A stretch of 64,000 nt of DNA from NCBI GenBank assembly GCA_045543655.1, contig JAZPXN010000035.1, positions 955 to 64,954 on the forward strand. Reading direction: 5' to 3'. The translations under genes and the position numbers were made by a program. Positions 7,234 through 49,276 of the stretch are shown here, one piece after another. The number at the start of each line of letters is the position of its first letter. Position 1 is the stretch's first letter. The notes beneath the pieces are model-generated. The model was not told the DNA's origin. It saw only the letters and a program-made list of their open reading frames with translations, and did not search any database. This DNA comes from Eubacteriales bacterium. GTDB taxonomy: Bacteria > Bacillota > Clostridia > Oscillospirales > UBA644.

Positions 7234-7263
7234 TTTTCTTACGCTTTTCACTGCAAAACCTTC

Positions 7264-7292
7264 TTGACGGAGGAGATTCCCTTTGTTATACT
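7264..7292 (+). promoter_or_regulatory. Sigma-A-type promoter
   Basis: TTGACG, 17-nt spacer, TATACT. Confidence 0.5.
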
Positions 7293-7321
7293 GAAAAAAA
7301 CGAAGCAAAAGGAGCATGTCC

Positions 7322-16106: not shown

Positions 16107-16161
16107 AGGCAGGCACTCCTTTTTTGGCATAAATTACTATCTTCATTATAAGAAGAAATCC

Positions 16162-16190
16162 TTGACATTTCTCGCAATTTATTGTATAAT
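16162..16190 (+). promoter_or_regulatory. Sigma-A-type promoter for the AraC-hydrogenase unit
   Basis: TTGACA, 17-nt spacer, TATAAT (perfect consensus). Confidence 0.55.
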
Positions 16191-16223
16191 ATTAGACAGA
16201 AGTTAACTTTTTCGGAGGACGTC

Positions 16224-17021
16224 ATGATCCTTTATCAATCCCACAACTCTTCGGTGCCTTACAACTACGACGCCGTAGATTACGACAATTTCGAATACAT
16301 CCCTCATTTGCATCGGGATCCGGAGCTGGTCTGCGTGCTGGAGGGGGCCGTCGAGGCGGTCATCGAAGACCGGACCGAAACCGTCCGGGCAGGACAGTTT
16401 GCATTGATTTTACCCAATCAGGTGCACACCTTCCGCACGCCGGAATTTTCCCGGGCCCGGGTCATCGTTTTTTCGGAAGAATACGTCCGGGAATTCCGGA
16501 AAAGTCTGGGAGACCGGGAGGGGAAAACCAGCGGCTTTACCATGCCCGAAGGGGATCGCACTCTGTTTCTGGAGCGCATGACGCTGACGCCGCCCCACCG
16601 GATGGACATTTGTGCCTGCCTGGCGTTGGCCTGCGGAGCGTACCTGAAGGAAAAGGAGCGGGAGGGAATGATTCCGGCCCGGCGAAAAAAGGAAGATCTG
16701 ATGCACAAGATCCTTTCCTATATCGCCGGTCATTACACCGAAAACGTGACCTTGACCGCCATGGCGGAGGCTCTGGGATACGAAGAGCATTATCTTTCCC
16801 GGTGCTTTCATCGGCTGTTCCGGAAAAACTTCAAGCAATTCGTCAACGAATACCGCATTTATCACGCCCGGCAGCTTCTGTCCGACTCCGACGATCGGAG
16901 GACCCTGACAGAAATTGCCTTTTCCAGCGGATTTCAATCGGTGCGGAATTTTAACCGCGTCTATCGGGATCTGATGGGATGCGAGCCCCGGAGGCAGAAG
17001 CCTACGAACGGCCCGGCTTAA
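16224..17021 (+). CDS. AraC-family transcriptional regulator (cupin sensor + HTH)
   Basis: ATG 16224 follows GGAGG. Contains ...YIPHLHRDPELVCVLEGAV... and the C-terminus ...IAFSSGFQSVRNFNRVYRDLMGCEP. Confidence 0.85.
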   Translation: MILYQSHNSSVPYNYDAVDYDNFEYIPHLHRDPELVCVLEGAVEAVIEDRTETVRAGQFALILPNQVHTFRTPEFSRARVIVFSEEYVREFRKSLGDREGKTSGFTMPEGDRTLFLERMTLTPPHRMDICACLALACGAYLKEKEREGMIPARRKKEDLMHKILSYIAGHYTENVTLTAMAEALGYEEHYLSRCFHRLFRKNFKQFVNEYRIYHARQLLSDSDDRRTLTEIAFSSGFQSVRNFNRVYRDLMGCEPRRQKPTNGPA

Positions 17022-17040
17022 TCAAAAAGAAAGGAAGCTT

Positions 17041-18453: not shown

Positions 18454-18479
18454 GACGGGAGATGGGGAAATAAAACGGC

Positions 18480-18509
18480 GTTCTTTCCTTTCACGAGAAA
18501 GGAAAGAAC
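18480..18509. repeat. Perfect 13-bp hairpin related to the GTTCTTTCC...GGAAAGAAC family
   Basis: gttctttcctttc-acga-gaaaggaaagaac, 27 nt after the hydrogenase stop. No T-run follows. Confidence 0.55.
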
Positions 18510-18570
18510 CAAAGGAAAGCGGCGGCGGACGAATTTCATTCGACCGGAAGATTACGAAAAACGTTCTGCT

Positions 18571-18603
18571 AAAAAACGGAGCCGGCTCAGATGAGCCGGC
18601 TCC
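18571..18603 (-). terminator. Rho-independent terminator (minus strand; may also stop the convergent hydrogenase transcript)
   Basis: 11-bp stem ggagccggctc/gagccggctcc. On the minus strand it is followed by GTTTTTT. Confidence 0.65.
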
Positions 18604-18653
18604 CGATCTTTAAGATCATGTTCAGTTTACGGAGATAACGGTTCGTCCGTCGG

Positions 18654-22439: not shown

Positions 22440-22468
22440 TTGACATCGCGGAAACGATGTGATATAAT
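22440..22468 (+). promoter_or_regulatory. Sigma-A-type promoter of the pyr operon
   Basis: TTGACA (22440..22445), 17-nt spacer, TGaTATAAT (extended -10, 22460..22468). Confidence 0.55.
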
Positions 22469-34967: not shown

Positions 34968-35085
34968 CCTTTTTCCGATTTTTTTACAGTATAGCATTTC
35001 CACCGGTCTGCTGTCAACCGTCTCGGGAAACGGTTCGATCAATTGTCACAATCTCAAAACAAAAAGACGAAAAACTGAAACAAAA

Positions 35086-35117
35086 AGAAGACGAAGCCTC
35101 TTAAGGCTCCGTCTTCT
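35086..35117 (-). terminator. Rho-independent terminator closing the tubulin-like operon
   Basis: 13-bp stem (one mismatch) agaagacgaagcc/ggctccgtcttct, 24 nt after the stop at 35141. On the minus strand it is followed by T-rich CTTTTTGTTTCAGTTTTT. Confidence 0.7.
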
Positions 35118-35140
35118 TTGCTTCATGAAATTTCGGGGGA

Positions 35141-38100
35141 TTACTTGCGCTGGAATTTGAAGGTGACCGTCCGGAGATTCTTGTTCCAGCCGTAGCGGAA
35201 ACGGTTAACGTCCAGCTTTTTGTCGGTCTTGGAAAGAACCTTCAGAAGATCGTATCCGTCCTTCCCGTCGGCACAGAGCTTGTTCAGCGCCGTTTCGTAC
35301 ACCTCCCGGGTGGTGCACTTAAAGGAGAAGGAATCTGCCTTGTTCTCGATTGCAATCTGGGCAATGGCGCGAATCTTGTTAAGATCGTAGGTCTCCAGGA
35401 CGTATCCGTTGTGATAGAAGTAATTGGCCTTGGTTGCCTCGCATTTTGGCATTTCCAGAGGGCACATCTTCAGATCGCGGGTACGGAGCAATTCTTCCTC
35501 GGTGATACAGAAATAATCGAAGCCGAGATCGTTGCTCTTGACGGTCTGCACCGTATTGGAGCTGTCGTCCCAGGTGGTATCGATATAATAATAATCGCCG
35601 TCGATCTTGATGATATTCCAGGCGTGGCCGCCGCCCAATTCTCCGGTATCCTTGATAATATTCCCGGCGGCTTCGGCGCATTCGACGCCGCATTTCTGCA
35701 GCAGATACTGCAGCGCCCGGGCATATCCCTCGCAGACCGCCTTCCCGTCCAGGAAGACGCCGTAGATGGAGCGCAGACGGTCGATCTCCTCCAGCTTGGG
35801 ACCGCCGGCCGCCTTCTCCCGGTTCAGAGAAACGGTATCGTAGTCCACGGAGGAAATCAGCTTCACGTGCATCCGCAGAGCCACGTCGTAAGCGCTCATA
35901 GCGTCGGTAATCCCGTCAAGGTACTTAGGCACGACCTCGTCGATGCGGCGCCGGATCTCTTCCGCTTCAGTTGCGGTAGCCCCGTACCAGAAGCGGATCT
36001 CCGACCCTCTCAGCTGCGCGATCTTATACCAAAACAGCTCCGGATGGTCGAAGGCAATGCATTCCGACACCGTGTCCACGTCAGCGGAGGTAACGCCCCC
36101 TTCGGCAGGAATGACTTCGGCGAAATCCCGGATTCCGTCCAGCATAGCGTCGTACAACGCCTGACGCTCCAAACTCAACCGGGCGTAATAGAAATAGGGA
36201 ACCGAGCCGTCCGTCGTCCGGTCGGGGGTGGTAGGCACGTAGGGCTTGCCGTATTCCCCGGCACCGATGACTCGGGGCGTAAGCACCCGCACCACGGGCT
36301 TTTCCGATCCGCCGGAGTACTCCGACAGATACAGGAAGGGATTGTTCTTATACTGAGGATTGGCCAAAAGCTCCCGGACCAGCTTCCGGTATCCTTCCCC
36401 GGAAAGGGAGCCGTTGCTTTCGTAATAGGTCGAACGGGCCGACGCCAGTCCGTCGTGTCCGAGGAACCGCAGGTACTGGATCCCGACCAGCGCGGGGAGA
36501 CCTTCTGCCAGCCCCTCTTCCAGATTGGGGAGGTGCTTGATCTGCCAAACGTGGGACAGCTCCCGAACCAACAACTCGGAGAGATTTGCCGACGGAAGCT
36601 CGTATTCCACGTGCACCTTCTTTTTCTCGTCCACGTAGGATTTCAAAGGAAGATCGGCGCCTCTCCGCCGAAAATCGGGATGCTGTCGCAGGCTGTTGAC
36701 GATATTGACCGTCGACTCGAAGCAGAACTCGTAATCGTTATCCAGGGAAATCCCGTAGGAGCTCTCCAGGAAAATGCGGGCCCGGTCCAGATGCTCCTTC
36801 AGCACCCGCTTATGATTGCCCACCAGCTTGGCGGCGCATTCACGGCACATCTTACGCCCGTCAGGCAACGCCGTGACGTCCGGCCCCTTGGGATAGCGTT
36901 TTCCGCAGAAATCGCAGGTATCGCAGAGGGCGACCTCTTCGATGGGAACGAATTGGATCTCGTAATTCTCGTCGCACAGAAGGTTGGCAAGCTTGGTAAG
37001 CCCGGCGAAATCGAAGCAGGCAGGCTCCGCATCGCCGCCGTAATAGAGATAAGGACTCTTCTCTTCCGCCGCAGAATACCAATTCAGATATTTGCAGATG
37101 GGGTCGAAGAGGGTACGAAGAACGTGATCCCCGGAAGACATCAGAACCGAGATCACGCCGATATCGCTGGGGCAATCCTCGATGATCAGAAGCTCAACGC
37201 AGCCCGGCTCGGCAGAATATCCACGGCAAAAGGCCTTGGGCAATCTGGTCCTGATCGCCGTGGGGACGTCGAGATCCGTTCCCTCCGGAAGCACGGGGCA
37301 GACCGCCACGGAATCCGCCACCGAGGGGAACACGGAGCGCATCAGCTCGTGGAGCATCGCCGCGGCGAGCGAAGCGATCCGGGGGGCGTTTTCGCCGAAA
37401 CTGCCGGTCATTTTCAAGGACATGACCAGTGCGCCGTTTTCCGAAGAAACGCAACTGCCCTTTCCGCTCAGAATCGTATCGGAAGAGCAGACGGCCTCTT
37501 CCGGCACGATCCGCCCGTAACGGCGATAGGTCTGCCGGAAGGCATCCTCCCGTCCTTCGCAGGTCAGATCCTCGTAAGGCAGAGCGTCGGCACCGTTCAG
37601 GGCAAGGGTCCGGTGATTGATGGGCGTATACCCTTTGGTCAAAACCTCCATGGGGCGGCGATAGACCGCAAGATACACGTCTTCCACCCGGACGTCATCC
37701 CCGGCGCCCAGGGTCATATGCTTCGTGGGATAGACCCGGTCGGCGTCGGAAGACCAATGAACGTAATATTCCCGGTCGGGGAGATACTGATAAGAAACGT
37801 TGTTCCGTCCACCGGTGACGCGGCTGACGTAAATCTTCCCGGACTCGGGATCCAGGTTATTGATTACGTAGACGTTTCCGTCGTAGAGCATATTCTGCCC
37901 CACGATGAAATTCTGCGTGATCCGGTCCTTGGGGATAGGCAAAAGCAATTCCGCTTTGGGCGTCACGAGGCGGATCATGTTGCGACCCTTGACGTAATCG
38001 TAAAGCGTCCCATGCTTGCGCAGACGAACCTTATCCTCCGCAACGAAAACCCCGTCTTTCCCGAATTCTCTGCGGCTGTCGAATTCGAAATAGTCGTAAA

Positions 38101-40468
38101 GATTATATCCGTTATCCCGGGGGACGTCGCAATCACCCAGGATTTTCCAGAGAATCCCGTTGAAATCGCCGGCTTTTTGCAGCTCTTCGTATTCCTTCAG
38201 GTTTGCATTGGACAAAATCGCGCAGGTCTCTTCCATGGAGATTCCCCCGGCGCTGGCCTGGACGAGAATCTTATGCAGAGCATCCTGCTTCCGGCTTTTT
38301 TCCACCGGGATGCGGAGCAGCTGCTCCGATTGCCATAGCCCGTTGATATTGGCGGCGTAATAATCCCGCAGAAGATAGGGCCGGGAAAAGACCATCACCA
38401 GAGCAGGACGGTCGGAGGTCATTGCCGCATAACGGCGGATCACGGCGGGAAGATTATCTTCTCCGTCAAAAGCAACGATCACGTTGTAGTGATCCGGATT
38501 ATACAACGGCGTATTGAAGAACAGCTGATTCTCCGGATTCGCAAAAAAGCCGTTGTTTGCGTTGGAATGGACACTTTCCCGGAAATCGCCGAAGGGGATC
38601 CGCTTGTCGGCGAAGAGGGAAACGGTTTCCGCGCCGAAGGAGACGGCGTAATCCGAGATATTGACGAGCACGCCCAATTCCTCCACCGCCATAGCGGACT
38701 GAGGAAGGACGATTTTGCCGTTCTCGTCGGGGCGGCCTTCAAAATCGTAACAGCAGACGGTGGTGGCAGGGGAATAATCCATGGCGTCCGCCGTCTTGAA
38801 TCCGGCGGAAAGCAGGTTTTTCAAGACCCGATCCAGCCCGGGGGCGCGGGAATCGTCAAAGCAGACGTATTTGATCTGCTTCGAGGTATAACGAACCCGA
38901 AACGCATCGTTCTTACAGGGATCGCCGGTCTTCGAGCGGCTGGATTTACTGCTGTTGCGGGCACGCAGGGCAGCTTCCTCCCGCACGTTGCGAAGATTCG
39001 TATCGAAAAGGGACATCTGCCGGGGATACTGATTGACGGAATTCAGCACGTCAACGAAGATCACCGTATCGATCAGGCAGGAAAAAGCGCTGTGATTTTT
39101 CTCAAAATCAGCAGAACAAAGATAAGGAAGATCCGTGACCAGAATACTGCAATCGTCAATACGGACCCGATCGATGTTGCTCCTCTCGCCGCTGACCGCA
39201 CAGACGTTCCAGACAGGATGATCCAGGGAAATCCCGGAATCGTCCACGGCGTCGGCGGTGACGGCACTCCCCGGATAAAGACTGTAAAGCTCTTCCATGG
39301 CCTGGGTCACGTATCCGGCCACCGCGTGGATCTGAACGTTGTCGTTACAGACGAAGACCACGTTGTCCCCGCGGGCGAGAACGGTAGAGAGGTATCTCAG
39401 AAAATAGGCAGAAAACTCAGAGAAGAACCCGCCGTTCACGATCACGCCGGTAGGAACCTCCCGCCCTTCGCCCTCGTGAACCGATTTTTTATCGTGCTTG
39501 ATCCCAAGGGAGTGCAGATCGTTGCGGACGATGACGTCAAGGCACTTGATATAGCCGGGCTTTGCGGGATGGGGATTGCGCTGATCCCCCTCGATCCCGT
39601 CGGCGATCATCCGGGTGACCGGAAGACAGTCGGTGGTGGAAATCTCCGAGGAATTCCGAAGATCCTCCAACTGACAGCGGAAGAAGTTTTTAAACAGCTT
39701 CCGGCACTGGTTGTTGACCTCCTCTACGTCCACGCTGTGATCCGCCGTCTTGGGCGGAACCTTCTGAAGCTCGGGGCATTTCGACTCCACGTACTCCAAG
39801 CCCCCCAGGAAAAACCACGCCTCGTACAGCGGAAGGAGGGTCAGCATGGGATAGAGATACCCGGCGTCAAAGATCTGAGAAAGAATGCCGTAAGGAATCC
39901 ACGCCGCCCCAAAGAAAATGGGGAGCTGATAAACAAGGAACAGCACGGCGTACAGCGCAGAGAGGGTAAGACAGAGAAATTTCAGGATCTTCCCGACGAA
40001 GAACCAGTATTCCTCTTTGAAAAACCGCAGAATCGCCCGTTCGATCTTCTGAAGCAGGGTAAAATCCCCGTTCTTCCCCCGGGGCATGGAGAGATCCTTT
40101 CCGGCCAACCCCATGCGGACGAACCGCAAAAGGAACCAGAAGAGAAGCCCGATCCCAAAATTGAGAAGAATGGCGAAGAACACCGAAACGGCGTAATCAA
40201 TACGGGCGTAGGTGGTGAAAAATCCTGCGATCCGCGTCAGCAGAGGCCAGGAAGTGATGGCATAGAACAGATCCTTCAGGGCGGTCATCACGATGGCAAC
40301 GACGATAAAATAGACCACGGTGAACAGCAGAATCCGAAATCGCTTATCGGAGATCTCGTTTTTCTTATCCTTCCGGAAGGAAAGGAATTCCAGAAGCAAC
40401 GGGATCGCCATCAGACAAACCAAAGCGATCATCAGAAAAACTCTCAGCAAAAGCCACAGTATTTCCAT
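35141..40468 (-). CDS. 1775-aa polytopic membrane protein: N-terminal TM block, large cytoplasmic region, zinc ribbon, DA1-like peptidase-like module, C-terminal transglutaminase-like Cys protease domain
   Basis: AGGAG RBS. About 6 hydrophobic helices in aa 1-225. Zinc ribbon CDTCDFCGK...MCRECAAKL (aa 1182-1212). ...LVRELSHVWQIKHLPNLEEGLAEGL... at aa 1300-1325. Transglutaminase-like triad context KAVCEGYA (Cys1579, codon 35732..35734), GGGHAWN (His1615), YYIDTTWDD (Asp1630). Confidence 0.85.
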   Translation of the reverse strand: MEILWLLLRVFLMIALVCLMAIPLLLEFLSFRKDKKNEISDKRFRILLFTVVYFIVVAIVMTALKDLFYAITSWPLLTRIAGFFTTYARIDYAVSVFFAILLNFGIGLLFWFLLRFVRMGLAGKDLSMPRGKNGDFTLLQKIERAILRFFKEEYWFFVGKILKFLCLTLSALYAVLFLVYQLPIFFGAAWIPYGILSQIFDAGYLYPMLTLLPLYEAWFFLGGLEYVESKCPELQKVPPKTADHSVDVEEVNNQCRKLFKNFFRCQLEDLRNSSEISTTDCLPVTRMIADGIEGDQRNPHPAKPGYIKCLDVIVRNDLHSLGIKHDKKSVHEGEGREVPTGVIVNGGFFSEFSAYFLRYLSTVLARGDNVVFVCNDNVQIHAVAGYVTQAMEELYSLYPGSAVTADAVDDSGISLDHPVWNVCAVSGERSNIDRVRIDDCSILVTDLPYLCSADFEKNHSAFSCLIDTVIFVDVLNSVNQYPRQMSLFDTNLRNVREEAALRARNSSKSSRSKTGDPCKNDAFRVRYTSKQIKYVCFDDSRAPGLDRVLKNLLSAGFKTADAMDYSPATTVCCYDFEGRPDENGKIVLPQSAMAVEELGVLVNISDYAVSFGAETVSLFADKRIPFGDFRESVHSNANNGFFANPENQLFFNTPLYNPDHYNVIVAFDGEDNLPAVIRRYAAMTSDRPALVMVFSRPYLLRDYYAANINGLWQSEQLLRIPVEKSRKQDALHKILVQASAGGISMEETCAILSNANLKEYEELQKAGDFNGILWKILGDCDVPRDNGYNLYDYFEFDSRREFGKDGVFVAEDKVRLRKHGTLYDYVKGRNMIRLVTPKAELLLPIPKDRITQNFIVGQNMLYDGNVYVINNLDPESGKIYVSRVTGGRNNVSYQYLPDREYYVHWSSDADRVYPTKHMTLGAGDDVRVEDVYLAVYRRPMEVLTKGYTPINHRTLALNGADALPYEDLTCEGREDAFRQTYRRYGRIVPEEAVCSSDTILSGKGSCVSSENGALVMSLKMTGSFGENAPRIASLAAAMLHELMRSVFPSVADSVAVCPVLPEGTDLDVPTAIRTRLPKAFCRGYSAEPGCVELLIIEDCPSDIGVISVLMSSGDHVLRTLFDPICKYLNWYSAAEEKSPYLYYGGDAEPACFDFAGLTKLANLLCDENYEIQFVPIEEVALCDTCDFCGKRYPKGPDVTALPDGRKMCRECAAKLVGNHKRVLKEHLDRARIFLESSYGISLDNDYEFCFESTVNIVNSLRQHPDFRRRGADLPLKSYVDEKKKVHVEYELPSANLSELLVRELSHVWQIKHLPNLEEGLAEGLPALVGIQYLRFLGHDGLASARSTYYESNGSLSGEGYRKLVRELLANPQYKNNPFLYLSEYSGGSEKPVVRVLTPRVIGAGEYGKPYVPTTPDRTTDGSVPYFYYARLSLERQALYDAMLDGIRDFAEVIPAEGGVTSADVDTVSECIAFDHPELFWYKIAQLRGSEIRFWYGATATEAEEIRRRIDEVVPKYLDGITDAMSAYDVALRMHVKLISSVDYDTVSLNREKAAGGPKLEEIDRLRSIYGVFLDGKAVCEGYARALQYLLQKCGVECAEAAGNIIKDTGELGGGHAWNIIKIDGDYYYIDTTWDDSSNTVQTVKSNDLGFDYFCITEEELLRTRDLKMCPLEMPKCEATKANYFYHNGYVLETYDLNKIRAIAQIAIENKADSFSFKCTTREVYETALNKLCADGKDGYDLLKVLSKTDKKLDVNRFRYGWNKNLRTVTFKFQRK

Positions 40469-40486
40469 ATTGTCGGTACTCCTTTC

Positions 40487-42748
40487 TCAGCGTTCGTAGA
40501 TCTTCCGCAAGAATTCGTCGTCAATGATCGAATAGATCTCACGGTTTCCGTCTTCGCAATAGGCCTTGGTGTAGTCGATTTTTTCCTGATTGGAGGGACG
40601 GCCCGCATCACAGTGGGAGCATTCCATATCCTCCAGAATATTTTCGACCGTCTCCCGCCATTCCTTCAGCTTCCCCAGATGATGGCTCAGCTTCGCATCG
40701 GCAATGCGGCAGCAATCCCGATAAAAATCCACGTCCAGAACGTATTCGTAAACCCAGCGAAGGGAAGGAATATGCTTTACGAAAAGATCGTCGAAGGCCC
40801 GGACGGCGGCCTTGTTTTTATTGATCACTTCATCCGAGAGCTTCACCAGCTCCTTCCAAAGCTTTTCCATCTTGCGCAAATGGAAATACCGGGCGATGCC
40901 AAATCCCACCCCGAGAAGGAAATAGGGAACCAGCACGAACAGGACGGCGATCAGGGGGCCCTGAGGACTGGAGTGGATCATCTCCCACTGAATCATAAAA
41001 TAGGGAACCAAAAATACGGCCAGCGCAACGGCAAGAACGATCAGCATCGCCATCAGCTTCTTCAGGCTGTTTTCAATTTTTTGCACCCGGTTGGCAAACC
41101 ATTTGCACTGCTCCTGAATATTGGTCATGGCGATATCCCGCCCGACGCTGAACTTCAGGTATTCGCAGAGAACGGTTTCGTAGGCTCTGCGGGAGGACCG
41201 CTCCAGGAAGGAAACGGGGGTCTTTTCGGCAGAAGGGGCCTTGCTTTCGCTGTACATATAATCGTTCTTGACCGCATCCTCGTCGTCGAGGCGGAGAACG
41301 CTCCGCTTCCGCAACACCGGAGGCAGATTGTTCTTCGACCGACCGGAATAATTGGCCATGCGGAGCTCCACGTGGTTGCTCAGCTCCCGCAGGAAATTCA
41401 GATGATGGTTCGCAAGACCGTCGGACCGCTGAATATAATCCTTCGCAGACGAACCGAAGGCGTCGGTCTTATATCCGTCGCCGCCCCCGTCGAAGGGCTT
41501 ATAGGCCTCTTCGTTGAACCAGGGCGCAACGTCTCCCGTTTCCAGCTCCATCCGGACGGGATCGTTCATTTTTGCCGTGTCATGCCTCCCGTTCGCGTCG
41601 GCCTTCTGCTCGGTCTTGGGATCGATGACCTTCGAAACGTATTGAGAGCTCCGGTTTCCGGCCGCGTCCAGACCAAACTTTTCGTGGGCAAAACGGCGGG
41701 GAGCGGGAGCCAGACCGAGGGAGGTATAATCGTCCTTCAAGGCGGCGGCTTCCCCTTCAAACCGGGCGTAGGTCTGCTTTTTCTTCAAAAGCATGCAGAA
41801 CAGCTCGTTCCACTGTTCGGAAGAGGGATTTACGATTTTCTTTCCGGGCAGATTCAGAGAATTCCCCTCCGACTTCCCGTAAACACTGCCGGTGCGGACG
41901 CACTCCAGCAGAAGGCATTGCAGAAGCAGATTCCGCTTCGTGCTCATTTCTTTGTTCGTTCTGCCGCCCCGGCGGTCGGTGACGAATTCGGAAACCACCG
42001 CCTTTCCGGCGCAATCCGACTCGTAAATACGGTCCACGGCGTAGGTCAGATCCATGGAAGCGCGGTCGGGGAGCACGTATTCCCCGGAATCGGGATCGGC
42101 GGAAATTCCCCGGAGCATAAGACCGATCTTTTCCCGATACAGGTTGCGGACGAAGGCAAGGCGGGGAGAAGCGTCGGCCGCCAAAGCAGACTCAAGAGCC
42201 TCTCCGGGATGGGCTTCCGCCAGACGGGCCATCTCCAAAGGATCGGGAAGCTCCAGCATCTTTAAAAGGACGTCCCGCTTCTGCCGGTCAAGATAGGTAT
42301 ATCCGTCGTCGTCGATCACGTTGTTGCCCACGTCGTCCGCGTCGATGCGGTTTTGCTCCATCAGAATCAGCATCCGCTCCACGGGACAGCGGCCGATGGA
42401 GACCAACGTCTCGTAGATCGTTTCCACGAGGAACCGGACGCACAGGCGGCGCAGCATCCCGTAGGCCGCGTTTTTATCGACCCGGTCGGGGCAGTTTTGC
42501 ACAAGCGTAACGTATTCCGGCATTTCCAGAAGATCGACGTAGACGACGAGATTGTAATCGTTGCCCATTTCCTTGTAATTGTCGATCATTTCGCCCAGCT
42601 TTTCCGCATGGGAAAGAAACCCCTCCTCCATCAGCGAAGAGAGGGATACGTCGATCTGGGTCAGCTTACGGAATTCCTTCTCAATTCCCAGAACGTCCAT
42701 CCGGCCGCCGACCGCGTTGGGGGACGTATTGATAAATACGGTATGCAT
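40487..42748 (-). CDS. 754-aa hypothetical protein with a TM hairpin near the C-terminus
   Basis: Trimmed from TTG 42775 to ATG 42748 (MHTVFINTSPNAVGG...), with GGAGGA 9 nt upstream. Two adjacent hydrophobic helices: LMAMLIVLAVALAVFLVPYFMI and PLIAVLFVLVPYFLLGVGFGIA. No recognisable catalytic motif. The stop lies 18 nt before the next start. Confidence 0.8.
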   Translation of the reverse strand: MHTVFINTSPNAVGGRMDVLGIEKEFRKLTQIDVSLSSLMEEGFLSHAEKLGEMIDNYKEMGNDYNLVVYVDLLEMPEYVTLVQNCPDRVDKNAAYGMLRRLCVRFLVETIYETLVSIGRCPVERMLILMEQNRIDADDVGNNVIDDDGYTYLDRQKRDVLLKMLELPDPLEMARLAEAHPGEALESALAADASPRLAFVRNLYREKIGLMLRGISADPDSGEYVLPDRASMDLTYAVDRIYESDCAGKAVVSEFVTDRRGGRTNKEMSTKRNLLLQCLLLECVRTGSVYGKSEGNSLNLPGKKIVNPSSEQWNELFCMLLKKKQTYARFEGEAAALKDDYTSLGLAPAPRRFAHEKFGLDAAGNRSSQYVSKVIDPKTEQKADANGRHDTAKMNDPVRMELETGDVAPWFNEEAYKPFDGGGDGYKTDAFGSSAKDYIQRSDGLANHHLNFLRELSNHVELRMANYSGRSKNNLPPVLRKRSVLRLDDEDAVKNDYMYSESKAPSAEKTPVSFLERSSRRAYETVLCEYLKFSVGRDIAMTNIQEQCKWFANRVQKIENSLKKLMAMLIVLAVALAVFLVPYFMIQWEMIHSSPQGPLIAVLFVLVPYFLLGVGFGIARYFHLRKMEKLWKELVKLSDEVINKNKAAVRAFDDLFVKHIPSLRWVYEYVLDVDFYRDCCRIADAKLSHHLGKLKEWRETVENILEDMECSHCDAGRPSNQEKIDYTKAYCEDGNREIYSIIDDEFLRKIYER

Positions 42749-42770
42749 ATGCAAAACTCCTCCGAGGACT

Positions 42771-42807
42771 CCCAAAGGGAGGTGTCGGAAAACACCTCCC
42801 TTTTGGG
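42771..42807 (-). promoter_or_regulatory. Strong intercistronic hairpin between the tubulin-like gene and the next gene
   Basis: 14 contiguous base pairs (aaagggaggtgt/acacctcccttt core) with a 6-nt loop, extended by 3 G-C pairs across a 1-nt bulge. No T-run follows on the minus strand. It lies in the 71-nt gap 42749..42819. Confidence 0.6.
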
Positions 42808-42819
42808 GTCAGGTTAACT

Positions 42820-45800
42820 TCAGATAATATCGGTGCCTTCAGCGTCGCCGGAATCGGTAGTTCCGTCGTCGTCAATGGCCAGCTTCAGCTCCTGGAAGTC
42901 CTTGATCCAGGTATACTTGAGATACCGGTTCTTGCCCTTCATGGAGCTCTTCTGATAGATCCGGTGGCAGAGACGGACCTTGGCTTCGGCGATCTGATCC
43001 TCACCGCGGATCATATCGTAGTGGTTGGCCACGTCTTCCATCAGCGCGGCAAAGCCACCGATCAGATTGCTGTAGATATCGTCGTTGCAATCCTTGGACA
43101 TGGCGTAACGGGTGGTCATGGTGACGGCGTTCAGATCGTTGTCCACCAGAAGCCCCTTCAGCAGCTTGGTGCCCACGTAAGTGGTCATATCGGTCAGATC
43201 AGCCTCGTATTCGGCTTCCAGCTCCCGGACGATGGTTGACTCGAAGGAGGAGCTGTTGCGCAGAGCTCTTACCAGACGGGTGATATCGGTCTTGCCGATG
43301 GGTCTGCCATTCTCCTCCAGAGCCACGACCTTGGGCTGACGGTTGCCGTAAGCGTCCTTCCGGTATTCGATCAGACAGAACCTGTCGTGATCGATCACCA
43401 GCCGGCCGTAAGCCACGGCGCGCCAGAAGGCCTGGTAGAATTTCCGGTTGGCCTCTTCCTGCTTTTCGGCGCTGACGTAGGGCAGGAATTCGTGCCAGGT
43501 CTTATCCAGGTGGGGAGAATCCACGTCGGAGCCCCTGGCGATCATATTGGTGATCACGGCGTCGTAGTGCTTATAGTAATCCCCGCCTTCGGTTTCCCGG
43601 AACTTGCTGACGGCAGAGGCGGTGACGCCGTAGATGGAGGTATAGCAATACAGCTCGTTTTCGCCGTAGCGCTCGTGAGCGGCAGTGGCCTTATTGGCGC
43701 CGAGATTTGCCTCCAGAGCGGGGCAACGGGCCACGGTGTTGGGATGGAAGCCCCAGAAGGTCAGCTCCGTCTGGATCGGCATATACAGCTTCTCCCCGTC
43801 GGAGGTGGTCATCCACACGGCGCTGTCCGTATCGGGCTCAAAGCCGTCGTCGGATTTCTTCACCACGACGTCGGGCTGAGCAATGAGGAAGGGCTGGGCC
43901 TTCTGAGAAAGGCGGTTGCGATATTCCACCACGGCAGCCTGATGGCGGACCATCGCCTTTTCCGCATCGTTGTTGACGGCAAAGGGATCCTCGGATTCGG
44001 GAGCCCGGTCCTGCTGATACTTATAATCGCTCTCCTTATAGATCGCGCTGATAATATCGAGATCCACCAGGTCTCTGCATTCGGAGACGATGGTCTTGGT
44101 GAAGGAGGAGATGATCTTGTCGTGGAAGGCAGAGATGATGGATTCCTTCAGGTATTCCGCATTCTTGGGAACGTTGGGACGGACGCGGGAGCAGAACTTC
44201 CCGTAAATGGAATCGATGACGTCCCGGTTCAACTCGTGATTCCGGCCGGTCAGATCAAGGTTGAGAGAATCGTAGACCTCCTGCTTGTGTCCTTCCCGGG
44301 CGTAAACGTAAAGGGTCTTGCTGGCGTCTTCCTCGGTGGAGGCCACGTTCTCTGCGATCTCGGTCTCAAGCCGTTCCAGAAGAGCGGGGAAATCCCGGAA
44401 CATCTTCTCGATTTCGGCGATGAGAACGGTCAGACGGTCGTTCAACTTGGTCAGGACCTTCTGCTTCAGGATCGCGACCTCGTAATCCTTGCACAGGATC
44501 GCGTTGGCGGTGTTATAAAGCTTATACTTCCGGATGAAGTGCTGGATCTCGCTCTTGCTGATATGCATACCGACCTGAGACCAGTATTCCTCCAGCGTTT
44601 CGTTCTTCCGGGTCTTTTCGATATTGAAGGAGACCTTCTGATCCCCCTTCAGGGCCTTGGAGCGGCTCTTGGCGGGAGCAAGCATGCTCAGCTCGGTTTC
44701 AATGCGGCGGGCCAGCTTATACAGAAGATACTTGGCGGCAATGGGATGAACGAAGAATTTCTTGCCGTTGAAGTCTTCCTTCACGAACAGGCCGTAAAGG
44801 GTCTCGACGTCGTTCATATTGACCGACCCCATATCCATGGGAACGAAGGAACGGACGATGGAATCGGCGTAATCCTCACAGTTCTCGTCAAACTGATCGA
44901 GGACCTTGGCCACGATCCCCTCTTCCTTGGCGCGGATGCCCTTAAGGTCCTGCACGATGGTAGCGGGGAAGTTTTCGGGGTTCTCCGGATCGGCCAGATT
45001 TCTGCCCAACCGGGAAACCTTTCCGGTATCGCCGTTGGCCTCCACGGAAGCGCTGACGGCGTTATCCAGAAGGGATACGAAGCCTTCGATCTTGCAGGAG
45101 GGGATGACGATCATCTCACTGCCGTCGGCGGAGGGCTCCCGGGTCTCGTTGAAGATATCGTTGCGGATGGAGACGAAGAGACGGTCTTCCTTCCCCACGT
45201 GATCGGTCTTGGAGGTCTTCTCGTCGAAGATCTCGATAAACTTATCCCGGCGGCTGACGGGCTTGGGATCAAGACCGTCCTTTTCGGCGAGCTTCGCCTC
45301 TTCTTCCAGGGCGTCGATCTCCGCGTCGATGCGGTTCCATCCCTCGTTGACCGAATCCTTAGCGGCCCGCAGGGCACAGTACTCGGTCACGACGTCTCTG
45401 GGATATTCGGCCTTGGAGGTGCCGCAGGATCCGTAGACCGGCTCCTTGCTGGAATTGAAGGCGCGGAAGAGGTTGTCTTCCACCGAGTACAGCTCGGAAT
45501 ACATGGGAGCGTACAGCTGCATGTATACGATCTGGGCCACGATCTTTTCATATTCACCGATGCTGGTGAAGGCAGCGCCGCCCTTATCCACGTCGTCGAT
45601 AAAGAAGGCGTTATCAAAGACCTGACGGACGCCGGGCTTGCGGCTGTCGAAAAGATCCTGAATAATAATGGGGCGTTCGGGCAGGAAGTTCTTGCGAACC
45701 ACCTTGTTGATGGCGTTCAGCTCCCGGATGGCGGCGTAGGCGTTGGCGTAATAGTACAGCTTCTTCCGGGCGTTGTTCTTGGCGTTGGGGATGGTGCGCA

Positions 45801-46389
45801 GGAACACGTCGGGCAGGAGCAGGATGCCGCGGATGGTAGCCTCGCAGTTCCGTTTTTCAAAGAACTGACGGAGCCACAGAGCAACCTGGATGAACATCCC
45901 GGAGCCGGTACCGCCGGCCAGGGAAGAAACCAGCATCACGCGGAGCTTTTCCGGCTTGCCGGACTTGTTATGGAACACCTTCTCAATGGCGTTTTCCAGC
46001 TCCTGGATCTTACCGGTGGACATGGTATCCATAAAAGCAATACGGGATTTGATGCGGATCTCGGAGGCGCCGTCGATCATCGACTCGTCTCCGAAGGTCT
46101 CGTCGGAGGTACACCAGTTTTTGGTGTCCTTATTGGCATAAAGCGCCAGATATTCGCGGATCTTCCGATCGTCGCAGGTGGGGATAACGGGAATATCGGT
46201 ACCGCTGTCGGTGATATTCGTGTTATCGTTCTGATTGGTATCCATGACGGCGCAGGTGACCTTACCGTCGTTGATGGCAATGGAATTCTTCCGCAACAGC
46301 ATTGCCACGTTGTTCACGACCCGGCTGCCGGTGCCACCCAGACCGATGAGAACGGTCTGCGTGTCCATCCGAATCAAATCTTGTTTCAT
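42820..46389 (-). CDS. Tubulin/FtsZ-superfamily GTPase-like protein with about 850-aa C-terminal extension (1189 aa)
   Basis: Trimmed to ATG 46389 (MKQDLIRMDTQTVLIGLGGTGSRV...), with GGAGG 8 nt upstream. T1-like loop GLGGTGS (46324..46344). Tubulin-signature-like SLAGGTGSG (45898..45924). Long extension, then an acidic tail ...AIDDDGTTDSGDAEGTDII. Confidence 0.85.
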   Translation of the reverse strand: MKQDLIRMDTQTVLIGLGGTGSRVVNNVAMLLRKNSIAINDGKVTCAVMDTNQNDNTNITDSGTDIPVIPTCDDRKIREYLALYANKDTKNWCTSDETFGDESMIDGASEIRIKSRIAFMDTMSTGKIQELENAIEKVFHNKSGKPEKLRVMLVSSLAGGTGSGMFIQVALWLRQFFEKRNCEATIRGILLLPDVFLRTIPNAKNNARKKLYYYANAYAAIRELNAINKVVRKNFLPERPIIIQDLFDSRKPGVRQVFDNAFFIDDVDKGGAAFTSIGEYEKIVAQIVYMQLYAPMYSELYSVEDNLFRAFNSSKEPVYGSCGTSKAEYPRDVVTEYCALRAAKDSVNEGWNRIDAEIDALEEEAKLAEKDGLDPKPVSRRDKFIEIFDEKTSKTDHVGKEDRLFVSIRNDIFNETREPSADGSEMIVIPSCKIEGFVSLLDNAVSASVEANGDTGKVSRLGRNLADPENPENFPATIVQDLKGIRAKEEGIVAKVLDQFDENCEDYADSIVRSFVPMDMGSVNMNDVETLYGLFVKEDFNGKKFFVHPIAAKYLLYKLARRIETELSMLAPAKSRSKALKGDQKVSFNIEKTRKNETLEEYWSQVGMHISKSEIQHFIRKYKLYNTANAILCKDYEVAILKQKVLTKLNDRLTVLIAEIEKMFRDFPALLERLETEIAENVASTEEDASKTLYVYAREGHKQEVYDSLNLDLTGRNHELNRDVIDSIYGKFCSRVRPNVPKNAEYLKESIISAFHDKIISSFTKTIVSECRDLVDLDIISAIYKESDYKYQQDRAPESEDPFAVNNDAEKAMVRHQAAVVEYRNRLSQKAQPFLIAQPDVVVKKSDDGFEPDTDSAVWMTTSDGEKLYMPIQTELTFWGFHPNTVARCPALEANLGANKATAAHERYGENELYCYTSIYGVTASAVSKFRETEGGDYYKHYDAVITNMIARGSDVDSPHLDKTWHEFLPYVSAEKQEEANRKFYQAFWRAVAYGRLVIDHDRFCLIEYRKDAYGNRQPKVVALEENGRPIGKTDITRLVRALRNSSSFESTIVRELEAEYEADLTDMTTYVGTKLLKGLLVDNDLNAVTMTTRYAMSKDCNDDIYSNLIGGFAALMEDVANHYDMIRGEDQIAEAKVRLCHRIYQKSSMKGKNRYLKYTWIKDFQELKLAIDDDGTTDSGDAEGTDII

Positions 46390-46431
46390 AGGGGGTACCT
46401 CCAAAACTGTATTTGTATATTTTTTTTTTGC

Positions 46432-49068
46432 TTACTGATTTGCGGGAAGCGCGTAGGCAACGATCATCCCGTTGGCGATGACCGCAATGCCGTCCACCAG
46501 GGTATCCTTCGTCATATCGGTGAAAACGTAATACATTTCATCCGACGGACGGTCGATGGTGGCGATGGGTTCCACGGCATCCTCGTCGTAGGGGCTTAGG
46601 ACCTGAATCTTCAGACTGTTGTCCTGCACGTATTCCGCCACCTTTGCGGGATGATCGAACCGGTTGCGAAGATTAAACTGCACGGGAGTGATCTCGCCGC
46701 GGTACCAGACCTGGCCGTGGCAAAGAATACTGCCCCCGTCCCCGGCCGAAATGGATACTCCGTTCTGGAGCGGAATGATCTTGGTCTTCATGGTGGGGAT
46801 CAGACGGAAGCGGTACTTGAATTTGTTATACTGATCCAGCGCGATGGGCTTAAAGGTTCCGATCTCGTGATAACGGTTTCCGCGGGTGCCGGAGTGGGTC
46901 AAGTCCCCGAGATACAGCGTGGCGTTTTTCAAAAACCTGGGCTTATTGACCGTCGTATAGACCTGGGCGACGGCATAGGCAAGAATCAACACCTCCAGAA
47001 GCAGCGGAAGCACCACGTTCAAAAGGAGATACGGAACGCTTTCCTGCCGGACGTCGAGGACGTTTTCGGCGGTGCCGTAGGGATGCTGAAGCGTGACGGT
47101 AACGTCGTCCCCTTCCAGAAGGAAGAAGTACTGGAACCAATGCCAGAGCCAATTGACGCCCTTCAGCCCGTAATCCTTCTCGGAGTAGGGAGTGACGGTG
47201 ATCACGCCGTCGTTGGCGACGGAAACGTCGTATTTCAGATCCTCGTGGGATTCGTTGAACAGAACGGAAATCCCCTGCTCCACGTCGGCCTTCAGCAGCT
47301 GCTTGCCGTCCTTGGTGACGTAAAAGGAAACGCCCTTGGTATTTCCGTGAAGCTCGGTCTTTTTGACGCTCTCGTTATGATCCACGGGGATCACGTCGAA
47401 ATCAGCCAGAAGCACCGTATAGGTCTCGGTCGCGGAAATATTGCCGTTAACGGTGCAGGTCACGTCCACGTTATAGCTGTCCACGGTGCCTGCGGGAGCA
47501 ACGCCGGCGTTGGGCAGATAGACGATCCGACCGTCGGCGTCCACGGAGGTCACGCCGCTGTTGCCGTTCAGGGAAACGTTCACCTGGGGATTCAGCGCCT
47601 TGACGGCTTCGGGATCGGTCATCTCCACGCCGTCGGCAAAAACGGTGAAGCGGATCGACAGATCCTTGTTGGACGGAAGATCGCTCAGGCTGACGCTCTT
47701 CACGGCGCCGCCGAAGGAGGGAACCAGCGTATAGACGACCCTGCGCTCGGTGGGGGTAAATTTTTCGGAATATTCGATGGGATGGAATCCGTCGATGATG
47801 ACGGCGGCGGTGATCTTGGTCTCGATGTTTTTCAGCTCGTAATCCTTGAGCTCCATCTCTTTTCCGTCCTCGGTGCGGACGACCTTACCGTCCTCCGTAA
47901 CGGAGACCTCAAACCGGGTTCCGGGAGGAAGCAGGGAGGGATCGACCTCCACCTCCGTTCCCATTTCGTAGATCTTACAGGAAACGGTGACCTTATCCCC
48001 TTCGGCAACGTCGTCGAGCTGTGCGGGATCGGAGATCTCCACCCCGTTGACGGCAATCACCATCCGGGTCTCAAGGGCAGGCTCGAACAGGATGACCAGG
48101 TCCTTCAGGTCCACGTCGCGGTCGAAGGTGATCTTATAGGTGCCGGCACCGATGATATTTTTGGAATCCCCCAACAGGAACGCGCCGCCTACCAGATCCC
48201 GATGACCGGGATACCGGAGCGAAACGCTGCGGCTGACGGGAATGCCGATCTCGCTGCTGTAGACCGCCTTTGAGATCTTCGCCTCGGACTTCTGAGACAG
48301 AACGGCGATATTCAGCAAGGGGATGGTGGAAGAGACCTGAACGGTCTTTCCGTCAATCTGCTTGACGTCTCCGGTCCCGAGCCGGGTGCGGCCGGAGATC
48401 TTGTCGGCCATTTCGGACATAGCGCCGATAATCCCGGAGGCGTTGGAGGCGGAGTAAGTATAAATTCCCTTCGCCGCGTCTTCCTTGGGCGATACCACGT
48501 CCCCGATCCCGAGGAAGGTGATCTGGGCGTTACTGCCGTTGGGCATCTTGGCGGAAACGTACTCCTCGAATTTCTCGTTTAAAAATTTTTCCGCTCGGGA
48601 AACGGTCATACCGTACATTTCGTTAAAGCTGCCGTCGGTGATAACCACCAGCCAGTACTGGGTATTGGGGTTCGTATCCTTCACGTCGGTCAACTTCTTG
48701 AAGGCGGTCTCCACCGAATCGTAGGGCGTGGAGGCGGCGTCGTCGTGATCGCGGATGGAATCCACGGATCCCTGAATGCCGCCGGAGGACAGATCCAACT
48801 CCTTCGGATCTCCCCGCCGTCCGTTGTCACATTCGGACATATAGGTGATAAACAACTGATCGTCGCTGTTCAGCAACCCGGCGAAGGCCTGGGTGGCGTA
48901 ATTGGCGTAAGCCCAGCGGTCGCCCCCGTTCATACTCGTAGAATCGTCGTATACCAGAGAAACAACCTTCCGGATATACATCGACTCGGCGGAGGCAAAG
49001 ACGGGCAGGCTCACAACCACCGCCGCCGTCAGCACCAGCGCAAAAACGGAGAACAGTATTTTCTTCAT
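46432..49068 (-). CDS. Secreted vWA-domain protein with beta-rich ectodomain, single TM anchor and about 170-aa cytoplasmic tail (878 aa)
   Basis: Signal peptide MKKILFSVFALVLTAAVVVSLPVFASA. MIDAS motif VVSLVYDDSTSM (DDSTS = 48934..48948) ... WLVVITDGSF. TM VPYLLLNVVLPLLLEVLILAYAVAQVY (about aa 678-704). GGGAGG RBS. Confidence 0.85.
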   Translation of the reverse strand: MKKILFSVFALVLTAAVVVSLPVFASAESMYIRKVVSLVYDDSTSMNGGDRWAYANYATQAFAGLLNSDDQLFITYMSECDNGRRGDPKELDLSSGGIQGSVDSIRDHDDAASTPYDSVETAFKKLTDVKDTNPNTQYWLVVITDGSFNEMYGMTVSRAEKFLNEKFEEYVSAKMPNGSNAQITFLGIGDVVSPKEDAAKGIYTYSASNASGIIGAMSEMADKISGRTRLGTGDVKQIDGKTVQVSSTIPLLNIAVLSQKSEAKISKAVYSSEIGIPVSRSVSLRYPGHRDLVGGAFLLGDSKNIIGAGTYKITFDRDVDLKDLVILFEPALETRMVIAVNGVEISDPAQLDDVAEGDKVTVSCKIYEMGTEVEVDPSLLPPGTRFEVSVTEDGKVVRTEDGKEMELKDYELKNIETKITAAVIIDGFHPIEYSEKFTPTERRVVYTLVPSFGGAVKSVSLSDLPSNKDLSIRFTVFADGVEMTDPEAVKALNPQVNVSLNGNSGVTSVDADGRIVYLPNAGVAPAGTVDSYNVDVTCTVNGNISATETYTVLLADFDVIPVDHNESVKKTELHGNTKGVSFYVTKDGKQLLKADVEQGISVLFNESHEDLKYDVSVANDGVITVTPYSEKDYGLKGVNWLWHWFQYFFLLEGDDVTVTLQHPYGTAENVLDVRQESVPYLLLNVVLPLLLEVLILAYAVAQVYTTVNKPRFLKNATLYLGDLTHSGTRGNRYHEIGTFKPIALDQYNKFKYRFRLIPTMKTKIIPLQNGVSISAGDGGSILCHGQVWYRGEITPVQFNLRNRFDHPAKVAEYVQDNSLKIQVLSPYDEDAVEPIATIDRPSDEMYYVFTDMTKDTLVDGIAVIANGMIVAYALPANQ

Positions 49069-49107
49069 GCGTTATCCTCCCAATTTCGGAAACACTTATA
49101 ATTATAT

Positions 49108-49136
49108 ATTATACTACAAAATATTATATTTGTCAA
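49108..49136 (-). promoter_or_regulatory. Consensus sigma-A promoter of the four-gene operon
   Basis: Minus strand: TTGACA (49131..49136), 17-nt spacer, TATAAT (49108..49113). It sits in a strongly AT-rich 200-nt intergenic region, about 40 nt upstream of ATG 49068. Confidence 0.6.
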
Positions 49137-49276
49137 TATTTTTTCGTTTCTTTTCGCAGAGGGGCCACCAAAAAATCGACGGAATTTTTGTGCATACTGA
49201 CATAATAAACAGCCGCGCGAGGGGAATTTCGCACGGCTGGCAGGGAAAAGTTGTTAAATTATTGTAAAATCCCGGC

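Follow-up and report, generated by a model that had tools for sequence, protein, structure and literature searches.

We describe here a four-gene operon, g1 to g4, on the minus strand of a 64,000-nt stretch of DNA (the window) from an Eubacteriales bacterium (assembly GCA_045543655.1, contig JAZPXN010000035.1); all positions are given in window numbering. The operon encodes a secreted, receptor-like protein with a von Willebrand factor A (vWA) domain, a tubulin/FtsZ-fold protein of the FtsZl1 family, and two membrane-anchored proteins of the B5 and B12 families. The operon is real and self-contained; it belongs to the vWA–FtsZl1 class and, within that, to the clostridial vWA–FtsZl1–B5–B12 subtype. 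The locus is not categorically new; it refines a catalogued operon class, as a variant in which the catalytic module of B12 has been exchanged. What is new here is the pseudo-helicase fold of B12, a dead zincin next to an invariant transglutaminase triad, and a covarying hairpin between g2 and g3.

The operon and its conservation

Calling of open reading frames (ORFs) found four long ORFs between the promoter and the terminator listed in Table 1. For g2, a longer TTG-started alternative overlaps the gene's own GGAGG ribosome-binding site, while g3, read from the chosen ATG, begins with MHTVFINTS, the family-conserved N-terminus. The intergenic gaps (g1-g2, g2-g3 and g3-g4) are 42, 68 and 18 nt. 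An initial annotation of the locus had the gene sizes and the first and last of these gaps right, and gave 71 nt for the second by omitting one stop codon. It also took the unit to be bounded by one promoter and one terminator and to resemble its surroundings in base composition, and both statements hold: the two signals have the qualities given in Table 1, and the GC content of the operon (0.53-0.58) is in line with the rest of the window.

Table 1. Features of the operon in window coordinates; start codons were chosen by ribosome-binding site, and g2 and g3 parts follow the ORF numbering explained in the text.
Feature	Position	Strand	Remarks
Sigma-70-type promoter TTGACA-17-TATAAT	49108..49136	-	12/12 match; 39 nt upstream of the g1 start codon
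g1	46432-49068	-	Start ATG 49068; 878 amino acids (aa)
g1 parts			Type-I membrane protein: signal peptide 1-27; vWA with complete metal-ion-dependent adhesion site (MIDAS); ~450 aa of Ig-like beta-sandwich repeats; transmembrane (TM) segment 676-707; 171-aa cytoplasmic tail
g2	42820-46389	-	Start ATG 46389; 1189 aa
g2 parts			N-terminal tubulin/FtsZ-fold GTPase ~14-360; long helices/coiled coil; alpha/beta and helical C-terminal region
g2-g3 stem-loop	42767..42810	-	Upstream of the g3 ribosome-binding site; no U-tract
g3 (B5 family)	40487-42751	-	Start ATG 42751; 754 aa
g3 parts			Cytoplasmic N-region to ~568; TM hairpin 569-631; conserved cytoplasmic C-region (predicted from hydropathy and flanking K/R)
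g4 (B12 family)	35141-40468	-	Start ATG 40468; 1775 aa; polytopic membrane anchor, then a large, predicted cytoplasmic multi-domain body
g4 MrfA-like superfamily 2 (SF2) helicase + DUF1998-like fold, residues ~330-1215	36824..39481	-	Predicted with AlphaFold2 and Foldseek
g4 four-Cys zinc site (C1185, C1188, C1208, C1211)	36836-36916	-	End of the helicase-like region
g4 zincin-like module, residues ~1270-1400	36269..36661	-	Degenerate site RELSH instead of HExxH
g4 transglutaminase-like (papain-fold thiol enzyme) domain, residues ~1430-1775	35144..36181	-	Triad Cys1579-His1615-Asp1630
Intrinsic terminator closing the operon	35084..35119	-	16-bp stem (7 GC pairs), 4-nt loop, T-run

A locus scan covering one genome per GTDB species, with gene content established by tblastn and ORF calling, returned 46 related loci. 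All of them come from metagenome-assembled genomes of Clostridia from gut, rumen or digesters, the carriers being Oscillospiraceae, Acutalibacteraceae, Faecousia, Lawsonibacter, Ruminococcus and Lachnospiraceae. The order g1-g2-g3-g4, on one strand, is found in 33 of the 46 loci; of the other 13, 12 run off the end of their contig and one (L044) bears an internal deletion. One conserved operon of four syntenic genes, as the initial annotation had supposed, is thus what the scan recovers. The vWA gene adjoins the FtsZl1 gene in every one of the 46 loci, and also in a Bacillus locus (L047). The commonest flanking family is present in only 8 of the 46 loci, and because the flanks are not conserved while the gene order is, the four genes can be taken as the module. 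The same four-gene order recurs in distant cassettes, one with a short, zincin-active B12 (L052) and one whose B12 has both catalytic modules (L053). The Bacillus relative, on the other hand, consists of the vWA–FtsZl1 pair alone, without g3 and g4; therefore the pair is the core of the system, extended in Clostridia by B5 and B12.

Individual loci depart from this pattern. In L044 (5080-8860), g2 ends at about residue 437, g4 resumes at about residue 932 and g3 is missing, the result of either a deletion or a misassembly. L030 (4609-7768) has an insertion of ~3.1 kb between g2 and g3, and in L035 (7807-9899) g3 has shrunk to a 314-aa ORF.

g4: a helicase-like scaffold with an exchanged catalytic module

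The B12 protein g4 was studied through an alignment of 28 orthologues and a full-library search that yielded 316 related cluster representatives, in two length classes. Hydropathy places 4-6 hydrophobic segments within residues 1-225. The remainder carries 41 Cys in 1545 residues, which argues that the body of the protein is cytoplasmic, and the helicase-like fold described next points to the same location.

An AlphaFold2 model of residues 231-1430 (predicted local distance difference test score, pLDDT, 82.4; predicted TM-score, pTM, 0.74) has as its best Foldseek match the helicase MrfA (6znp_A), with an E-value of 2e-22 over 994 columns and a target-normalised TM-score (TMt) of 0.57; the next matches are Pol-theta helicase, Lhr, Brr2, RecQ and Hel308. 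The four-Cys site lies where a DUF1998-type zinc site is expected, and three of its residues (C1185, C1188 and C1208) are kept in all 28 orthologues, the last (C1211) in 27. Among 182 g4 relatives there is no positionally conserved Walker A (GK[ST]) or DExH; NGGFFSEFS stands at the position of motif I and VFVDxL at that of motif II. As judged from the model, residues ~330-1215 are an ATPase-dead pseudo-helicase scaffold. A helicase function for g4 was rejected on account of these missing ATPase motifs.

Downstream of the scaffold lies the zincin-like module. In the degenerate RELSH, R1302 is present in 28/28 orthologues, E1303 in 24/28 and H1306 in 18/28, and the module as a whole is still 58% conserved; by these comparisons it appears to have retained its fold and lost its catalytic site. 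Short g4 relatives of ~1200-1370 aa have the TM helices, the four-Cys site and an HELTHxWQ motif, and sit in the same four-gene order. Around this motif they match two zincin families, DUF6782 and BSP, with scores that exceed the cut-off in the representatives P0244, P0257 and P0299. Membership of the module in the DA1 family was considered and rejected, in that HExxH is lost, the Pfam DA1-like match is marginal, and BSP/DUF6782 fit the short relatives better. The initial annotation had recognised the TM helices, the zinc site and the transglutaminase-like triad of g4, all of which stand; its 'DA1-like' module proves to be catalytically degenerate, and the helicase-like core of ~900 aa had been missed.

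In the C-terminal domain, a g4 profile matches a PDB entry named 'Transglutaminase-like domain-containing protein' (9crn_A) with an E-value of 1.5e-33 and with the triad aligned; a literature search for 9CRN found no paper. Pfam Transglut_core matches all 28 orthologues (best E 7.7e-10), the window copy scoring 21 bits, just under the cut-off of 23. The transglutaminase-related NCBIfam model MAG6410 matches g4 at 2e-19, and is the only significant NCBIfam match on the four proteins. C1579, H1615 and D1630 are invariant in 33/33 domain-bearing cluster representatives.

How are the two catalytic modules related? Among 89 representatives of the g4 family, 58 have HExxH without the transglutaminase domain, 26 have a degenerate zincin motif together with the transglutaminase domain, two have both (P0249 and P0251) and three have neither. 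Put differently, of the 61 representatives without the transglutaminase domain 58 have an intact zincin motif, and of the 28 with it 26 have a degenerate one. By these counts, the catalytic role has passed from the zincin to the thiol enzyme, with the remainder of the protein retained. In a rough neighbour-joining tree the degenerate-zincin forms make up one clade, which argues for essentially one transition with a surviving intermediate rather than repeated convergence. On this sequence comparison, the transglutaminase domain is a late C-terminal addition, and the ancestral catalytic module of the g4 family is the zincin.

g2: the FtsZl1 protein

Domain and residue numbers of g2 refer to the 1194-aa ORF used for the alignment and the model (subtract 5 for the 1189-aa protein). 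Residues 18-352 match Pfam PF13809 (Tubulin_2) over positions 1-355 of its 356, with an E-value of 3.1e-50 and a score of 171.8 bits against a cut-off of 27; the match to PF00091 (Tubulin) is weak (E 4e-5). PF13809 is likewise carried by 120/120 g2 homologues among the matches listed. Pfam Tubulin_2 corresponds to the family that Makarova & Koonin (2010, Biol Direct 5:33) named FtsZl1, so that the initial annotation, which had pointed to this Pfam family and this paper, named the correct ones.

In 30 g2 sequences the T1 loop GLGGTGSR and the T4 loop GGTGSG are invariant, the unchanging residues being G21, G23, G24, T25, G26 and R28 in the former and G164, G165, T166, G167 and G169 in the latter. 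An AlphaFold2 model built from 30 homologues (pLDDT 83, pTM 0.68) was compared with the PDB by Foldseek, and every one of the top 50 matches is to CetZ, FtsZ, tubulin, gamma-tubulin, BtubB or TubZ, over 328-382 columns, with probability 1.00, a best E-value of 2e-5 and target-normalised TM-scores of 0.32-0.50. Both the GTPase domain and the second domain of the tubulin fold lie within the aligned span. The assignment of the N-terminal domain to the tubulin/FtsZ fold, first made from signature motifs, thus passes a check by structure prediction as well as by Pfam. A sequence-profile search with g2 reached no solved structure, and an hhalign comparison of the g2 alignment with an approximate E. 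coli FtsZ sequence was uninformative, as it aligned the T4 motif alone, at a probability of 0.6%.

Beyond the fold, DSSP assigns long helices at 483-520 and 617-691 of the model, followed by a mixed, mostly helical C-terminal region. FtsZl1 proteins were described as having an FtsZ-like domain at the N-terminus, a long coiled coil and a mostly helical C-terminus (Makarova & Koonin 2010). By its model, g2 is a clear FtsZl1/Tubulin_2 protein that fits this published architecture of ~1000-1200 aa. A conserved loop, L251-F252-D253-S254, follows the long core helix 212-238.

g1: a secreted vWA protein

The topology of g1 was read from hydropathy, and its 653-residue ectodomain contains 3 Cys. The MIDAS residues (D41, S43, S45, T114 and D145) are invariant in an alignment of 44 sequences; Pfam VWA/VWA_2 match 9 of these 44 members, and Big_9, CshA and Cadherin_5 also match. 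A profile search of g1 against PDB sequences gave nothing meaningful. The initial description of g1 (signal peptide, vWA MIDAS, beta-rich ectodomain, TM segment and a tail of about 170 aa) agrees with these results throughout. The vWA region is the best-conserved part of the protein, with 57% pairwise identity against 33% for the tail, and a hidden Markov model (HMM) of it finds the distant cassettes at E-values of 1e-159 to 1e-205.

g3 and the g2-g3 hairpin

The B5 protein g3 (domain numbers in the 762-aa ORF numbering of the alignment; subtract 8 for the 754-aa protein) has no above-threshold match in Pfam, NCBIfam, PADLOC or the PDB, and hhalign shows no relationship between g3 and g2. A homologue search returned 11 proteins. 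An N-terminal motif, MHTfFINTS, is invariant in the family, and a g3 HMM detects the equivalent gene in the distant cassettes L051-L053 at E-values of 1e-26 to 1e-33. The TM hairpin of the initial annotation was found again. When the hairpin region of six clade fragments was compared with known families, SLATT_1 matched 3/6 (E 0.012-0.057), DUF4231 3/6 and Phage_holin_3_6 2/6, all below the cut-offs; none of the three distant B5 proteins matched the SLATT, DUF4231 or holin profiles.

The spacer between g2 and g3 contains a stem-loop. Taken at 71 nt, the spacer of the window folds at -32.7 kcal/mol, and across loci L001-L036 the spacer is more stable than its shuffled versions (z < -2) in 30/31 loci, with a median z of -5.35. 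RNAalifold finds a 10-bp stem in which 9/10 pairs have compensatory two-sided changes; the structure is kept and the sequence differs between loci. Such a hairpin may be an intercistronic mRNA stabiliser or attenuator, and it probably sets expression of g1/g2 above that of g3/g4.

Genomic context

The perfect promoter motif occurs three times in the window, as against 0 in 100 shuffles, the other two copies being at 16162-16190 and 22440-22468 on the plus strand. Upstream of the operon promoter, at a distance of 74 nt, stands a terminator-like hairpin on the minus strand (49210-49239; 11 pairs, 8 GC), where the preceding transcription unit presumably ends and which would thereby insulate the operon. 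Downstream, a Melibiase/GH31-like hydrolase gene (33162-35042; Pfam PF02065 and PF01055) has a promoter of its own at 34988-35017. Scans of the window for tRNA genes and Rfam families gave no matches.

In 7 loci a DUF5640 small lipoprotein gene (~111 aa) begins <=~15 nt after g4 (for example L048:21048-21383, L005:15195-15530 and L010:14134-14493); the window does not have this gene, and the terminator follows directly after g4. A gene for a CARF-PD-(D/E)xK protein (Card1/Csx1-like) lies 1-2 genes downstream of g4 (D1 or D2) in 6 loci, such as L004:15600-16859, and the flanks contain single occurrences of other defence matches, namely IetA, DolB, mREase_IV and PbeA. In the distant cassette L052, three further genes follow directly on the same strand (13851-19866), encoding an AAA ATPase (PF00004 + AAA_lid_6, 664 aa) and two family-less proteins (644 and 682 aa), all three perhaps additional components of the short-B12 variant. 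The dual-module cassette L053 (GCA_900104495.1, FMXS01000005.1) is followed at 15472-16920 by a D5_N/DUF5906 primase-like gene, a type common on phages and plasmids and a hint that this intermediate form may sit in a mobile context.

A search of 50,697 phage records gave a single g2-like match, MT836542.1, a 9.8-kb 'Bacteriophage sp.' contig from human faeces, with a Tubulin_2-like N-domain at 6931-7962 that is 31% identical to g2 residues 8-351. The hypothesis that the cassette is a mobile element was rejected, g2-like genes being nearly absent from plasmid and phage collections.

Relation to known systems

The initial annotation regarded the arrangement as a candidate uncharacterised system, and in this it did not hold up. 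FtsZl1 was described by Makarova & Koonin (2010), who noted that most of its genes adjoin a vWA gene and have lineage-specific membrane partners, and who proposed a membrane-remodelling machine, leaving filament formation by FtsZl1 undecided. Their Additional file 5 tabulates vWA (861 aa), FtsZl1 (1183), B5 (658) and B12 (1435) in 'Bacteroides' (Pseudoflavonifractor) capillosus (BACCAP_04124-04121), and the same vWA–FtsZl1–B5–B12 row for Ruminococcus lactaris (RUMLAC_01529-01526). B5 was listed as an uncharacterised family of ~660-890 aa, and B12 as a membrane-associated zincin fused to a Zn finger (Makarova & Koonin 2010). The window cassette shares the gene order, the sizes and the clostridial host of this subtype, the match being one by table, not by sequence alignment. 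It differs in that its B12 is 1775 aa long, with an extra C-terminal transglutaminase-like domain and a degenerate zincin; that paper contains neither the helicase-like B12 core nor the g2-g3 hairpin.

The second published description is that of Kaur et al. (2020, eLife 9:e52696), in which firmicute and actinobacterial neighbourhoods with a tubulin-coiled-coil protein and an extracellular vWA protein are GAP1-N2 GTPase-centric, NTP-dependent conflict systems with SLATT effectors. The tubulin/vWA systems were read there as threshold-setting assemblies near the membrane. Their core is a GAP1 protein with one or two DO-type (TRAFAC-clade) P-loop GTPases that bear N-terminal zinc ribbons. The window shares with them a tubulin with a C-terminal coiled coil and a membrane protein with an extracellular vWA, but has neither GAP1 nor the DO-type GTPases, no FNIII-repeat proteins, and no second gene for a tubulin or a vWA protein. 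Consistent with this, no P-loop GTPase family emerged from the Walker A check of g4, the invariant residues of g3, or Pfam and NCBIfam searches of the four proteins and their window neighbours. B5 and B12 are not described in Kaur et al. (2020).

Two of the proteins can also be compared with better-known relatives. Bacillus subtilis MrfA (YprA; 6ZNP/6ZNQ/6ZNS) has two RecA-like domains, accessory domains and a C-terminal four-Cys module, all shared by g4; the identity, however, is 8-10%, Walker A and DExH are absent, and g4 is membrane-anchored, fused to peptidase-type domains and without an apparent link to DNA repair. With FtsZ, CetZ, TubZ and tubulin, g2 shares the two-domain fold and the T1 and T4 (GGTGSG) loops, but it is only 10-17% identical, has family-specific inserts and ~800 extra residues, and has no FtsZ_C or Tubulin_C.

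Possible functions of the cassette

We propose that the four proteins form a GTP-gated, envelope-spanning assembly with a peptidase-type output, a reading that seems to us evenly poised between right and wrong. On the outside, g1 would bind or cluster a ligand in a metal-dependent manner and relay this event through its tail. On the inner face of the membrane, g2 would self-assemble in a GTP-dependent reaction, tethered by g3 and g4. The assembly would then act as a threshold switch, bringing together or activating the peptidase-type module of g4, the sole enzymatic output of the cassette; and this module, ancestrally a zincin and in this clade a thiol transglutaminase/peptidase, would cleave, deamidate or cross-link cytoplasmic or membrane-proximal targets. 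The topology behind this scheme is concordant by hydropathy, the positive-inside rule and Cys content: g1 is predicted to expose its vWA outside, while the large cytoplasmic domains of g3 and g4 are kept at the membrane, in g3 by a two-TM hairpin and in g4 by a polytopic anchor. One extracellular vWA module with three cytoplasmic or membrane-tethered partners had also been the view of the initial annotation. Rather than in cell division, the cassette most likely serves in an accessory response to envelope stress or conflict, a role favoured by the patchy distribution, the variable context and the defence genes in some flanks; the conflict flavour comes from the classification of tubulin plus extracellular-vWA neighbourhoods by Kaur et al. 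(2020).

Several observations weigh against this proposal. GTP-dependent self-assembly or filament formation by g2 is putative, and the loop L251-F252-D253-S254 is a T7-like loop only by the order of secondary-structure elements in the model; no functional or experimental study of FtsZl1 turned up in the searchable literature. The coupling between gain of the transglutaminase and loss of the zincin, as read from the sequences, rests on essentially one transition, and transglutaminase-like domains can be non-proteolytic. If the cassette were a sensor engaged in an arms race, its receptor would be expected to vary, and the opposite is the case, the vWA ectodomain being the best-conserved part of the cassette. 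No PADLOC model matches any of the four proteins. The flanking genes across loci are mostly housekeeping genes, and the neighbours of the cassette in the window are carbohydrate enzymes (the Melibiase/GH31-like hydrolase and a polysaccharide deacetylase).

Among the rival explanations, the membrane-remodelling machine of Makarova & Koonin (2010) has the advantage of being the published prediction for the operon class. Here filaments of FtsZl1, with g3 and g4 as their anchors and a coupling to the vWA protein, would bend or constrict the cytoplasmic membrane, in the formation of vesicles or septa-like structures or in repair, with g4 catalysis in an accessory role. All but one of the four proteins are embedded in the membrane, the two-domain tubulin/FtsZ fold that filament formers use is complete in g2, and the strong conservation of the vWA would suit a structural or housekeeping ligand. 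It is difficult to see, however, why a basic cellular process should have such a patchy distribution and variable context, which suggest an accessory one, or why a peptidase-type site should have been kept up across the zincin-transglutaminase exchange; the helicase-like scaffold is also left unexplained, and no ESCRT, dynamin or lipid-binding domain was detected. We regard remodelling as unlikely, though the likeliest of the rivals. Adhesion is a different use of the same architecture: g1 would be a MIDAS-vWA adhesin on an Ig-like stalk, directed to a conserved host, fibre or cell-wall ligand, with g2 filaments, g3 and g4 clustering and anchoring it in a kind of integrin-like inside-out control and the transglutaminase cross-linking components. 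The vWA domain, the Ig repeats and the CshA, Big_9 and Cadherin_5 matches do resemble Gram-positive adhesins, the ligand-binding domain is highly conserved, the carriers come from gut and rumen, and the small DUF5640 lipoprotein gene that follows g4 in 7 loci would fit as well. Yet the transglutaminase domain is predicted to be cytoplasmic and so cannot cross-link surface proteins, there is no sortase signal and there are no pilin genes, and neither the pseudo-helicase nor the ancestral zincin finds an explanation; such an adhesion complex is distinctly improbable.

DUF1998 modules are also found in the DISARM defence system, and the closest fold to that of g4 is the MrfA/DUF1998 DNA helicase with its ATPase motifs lost. 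Perhaps, then, the cassette is a tubulin-based abortive infection system or invader sensor, in which the MrfA-like module binds nucleic acid entering by phage injection or conjugation, g2 polymerisation amplifies the signal, and the transglutaminase/zincin and a possible SLATT-like g3 pore bring about arrest or death. In a related form of an immune device, either g4 would sense nucleic acid at the membrane or g1 a surface event, the FtsZl1 polymer would set an all-or-none threshold, and growth arrest would follow from the g4 protease and the g3 pore. The conflict-system class with SLATT effectors (Kaur et al. 2020), the weak SLATT_1, DUF4231 and holin matches on the g3 hairpin, the CARF-PD-(D/E)xK and other defence genes in some flanks, and a patchy distribution that looks shaped by horizontal transfer all lend this idea some substance. 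Against it, the SLATT matches are all sub-threshold and TM segments draw chance matches, the PADLOC result mentioned above is null for all four proteins, no component is hypervariable and the receptor is the most conserved, the cassette is nearly absent from plasmids and phages, and nucleic-acid binding by g4 is deduced purely from its modelled fold. We consider abortive infection improbable on this balance, and the immune-device form of it just as doubtful. The initial annotation had drawn yet another parallel, to the triads of a MoxR ATPase, a vWA-like (DUF58) protein and a TM-transglutaminase (yeaC-yeaD-yebA), with the AAA+ ATPase swapped for a tubulin-like GTPase. By description, both combine an NTPase with a protein of the vWA fold and a transglutaminase-like protein anchored in the membrane, and in actinobacteria the tubulin/GTPase and MoxR-vWA systems are mutually exclusive, from which Kaur et al. 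(2020) suggested functional equivalence. In the window, however, the NTPase is of a different class, and g1 differs from a cytoplasmic DUF58 protein in being a secreted type-I receptor with a vWA domain. The transglutaminase is a secondary replacement of a zincin on a helicase-like scaffold, added late, while 58 of the 61 representatives without it carry an active-type zincin (HExxH). The Bacillus relative has vWA and FtsZl1 only, without g3 and g4, and no AAA+/MoxR or DUF58 match was found in the cassette or its neighbours. As an evolutionary relation the parallel fails, and a triad of this kind with its ATPase swapped is highly improbable as an account of the cassette.

Significance

For the FtsZl1/Tubulin_2 proteins, the most divergent branch of the tubulin/FtsZ superfamily, there are two incompatible predictions, membrane remodelling and a conflict system. 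The cassette, with its four genes and a single promoter and terminator, offers a compact test case, and relatives of it are present in the cultured strains R. lactaris ATCC 29176 and P. capillosus ATCC 29799. It also provides handles, in the catalytic C1579, in the natural series of zincin-active, dual and transglutaminase-only forms, and in the pseudo-helicase; and because the receptor ectodomain is conserved, the g1 ligand should be findable. If the reading as an immune device were true, it would give the FtsZl1 branch its first functional role, and would make this the first cytoskeletal-type polymer to serve as a defence switch.

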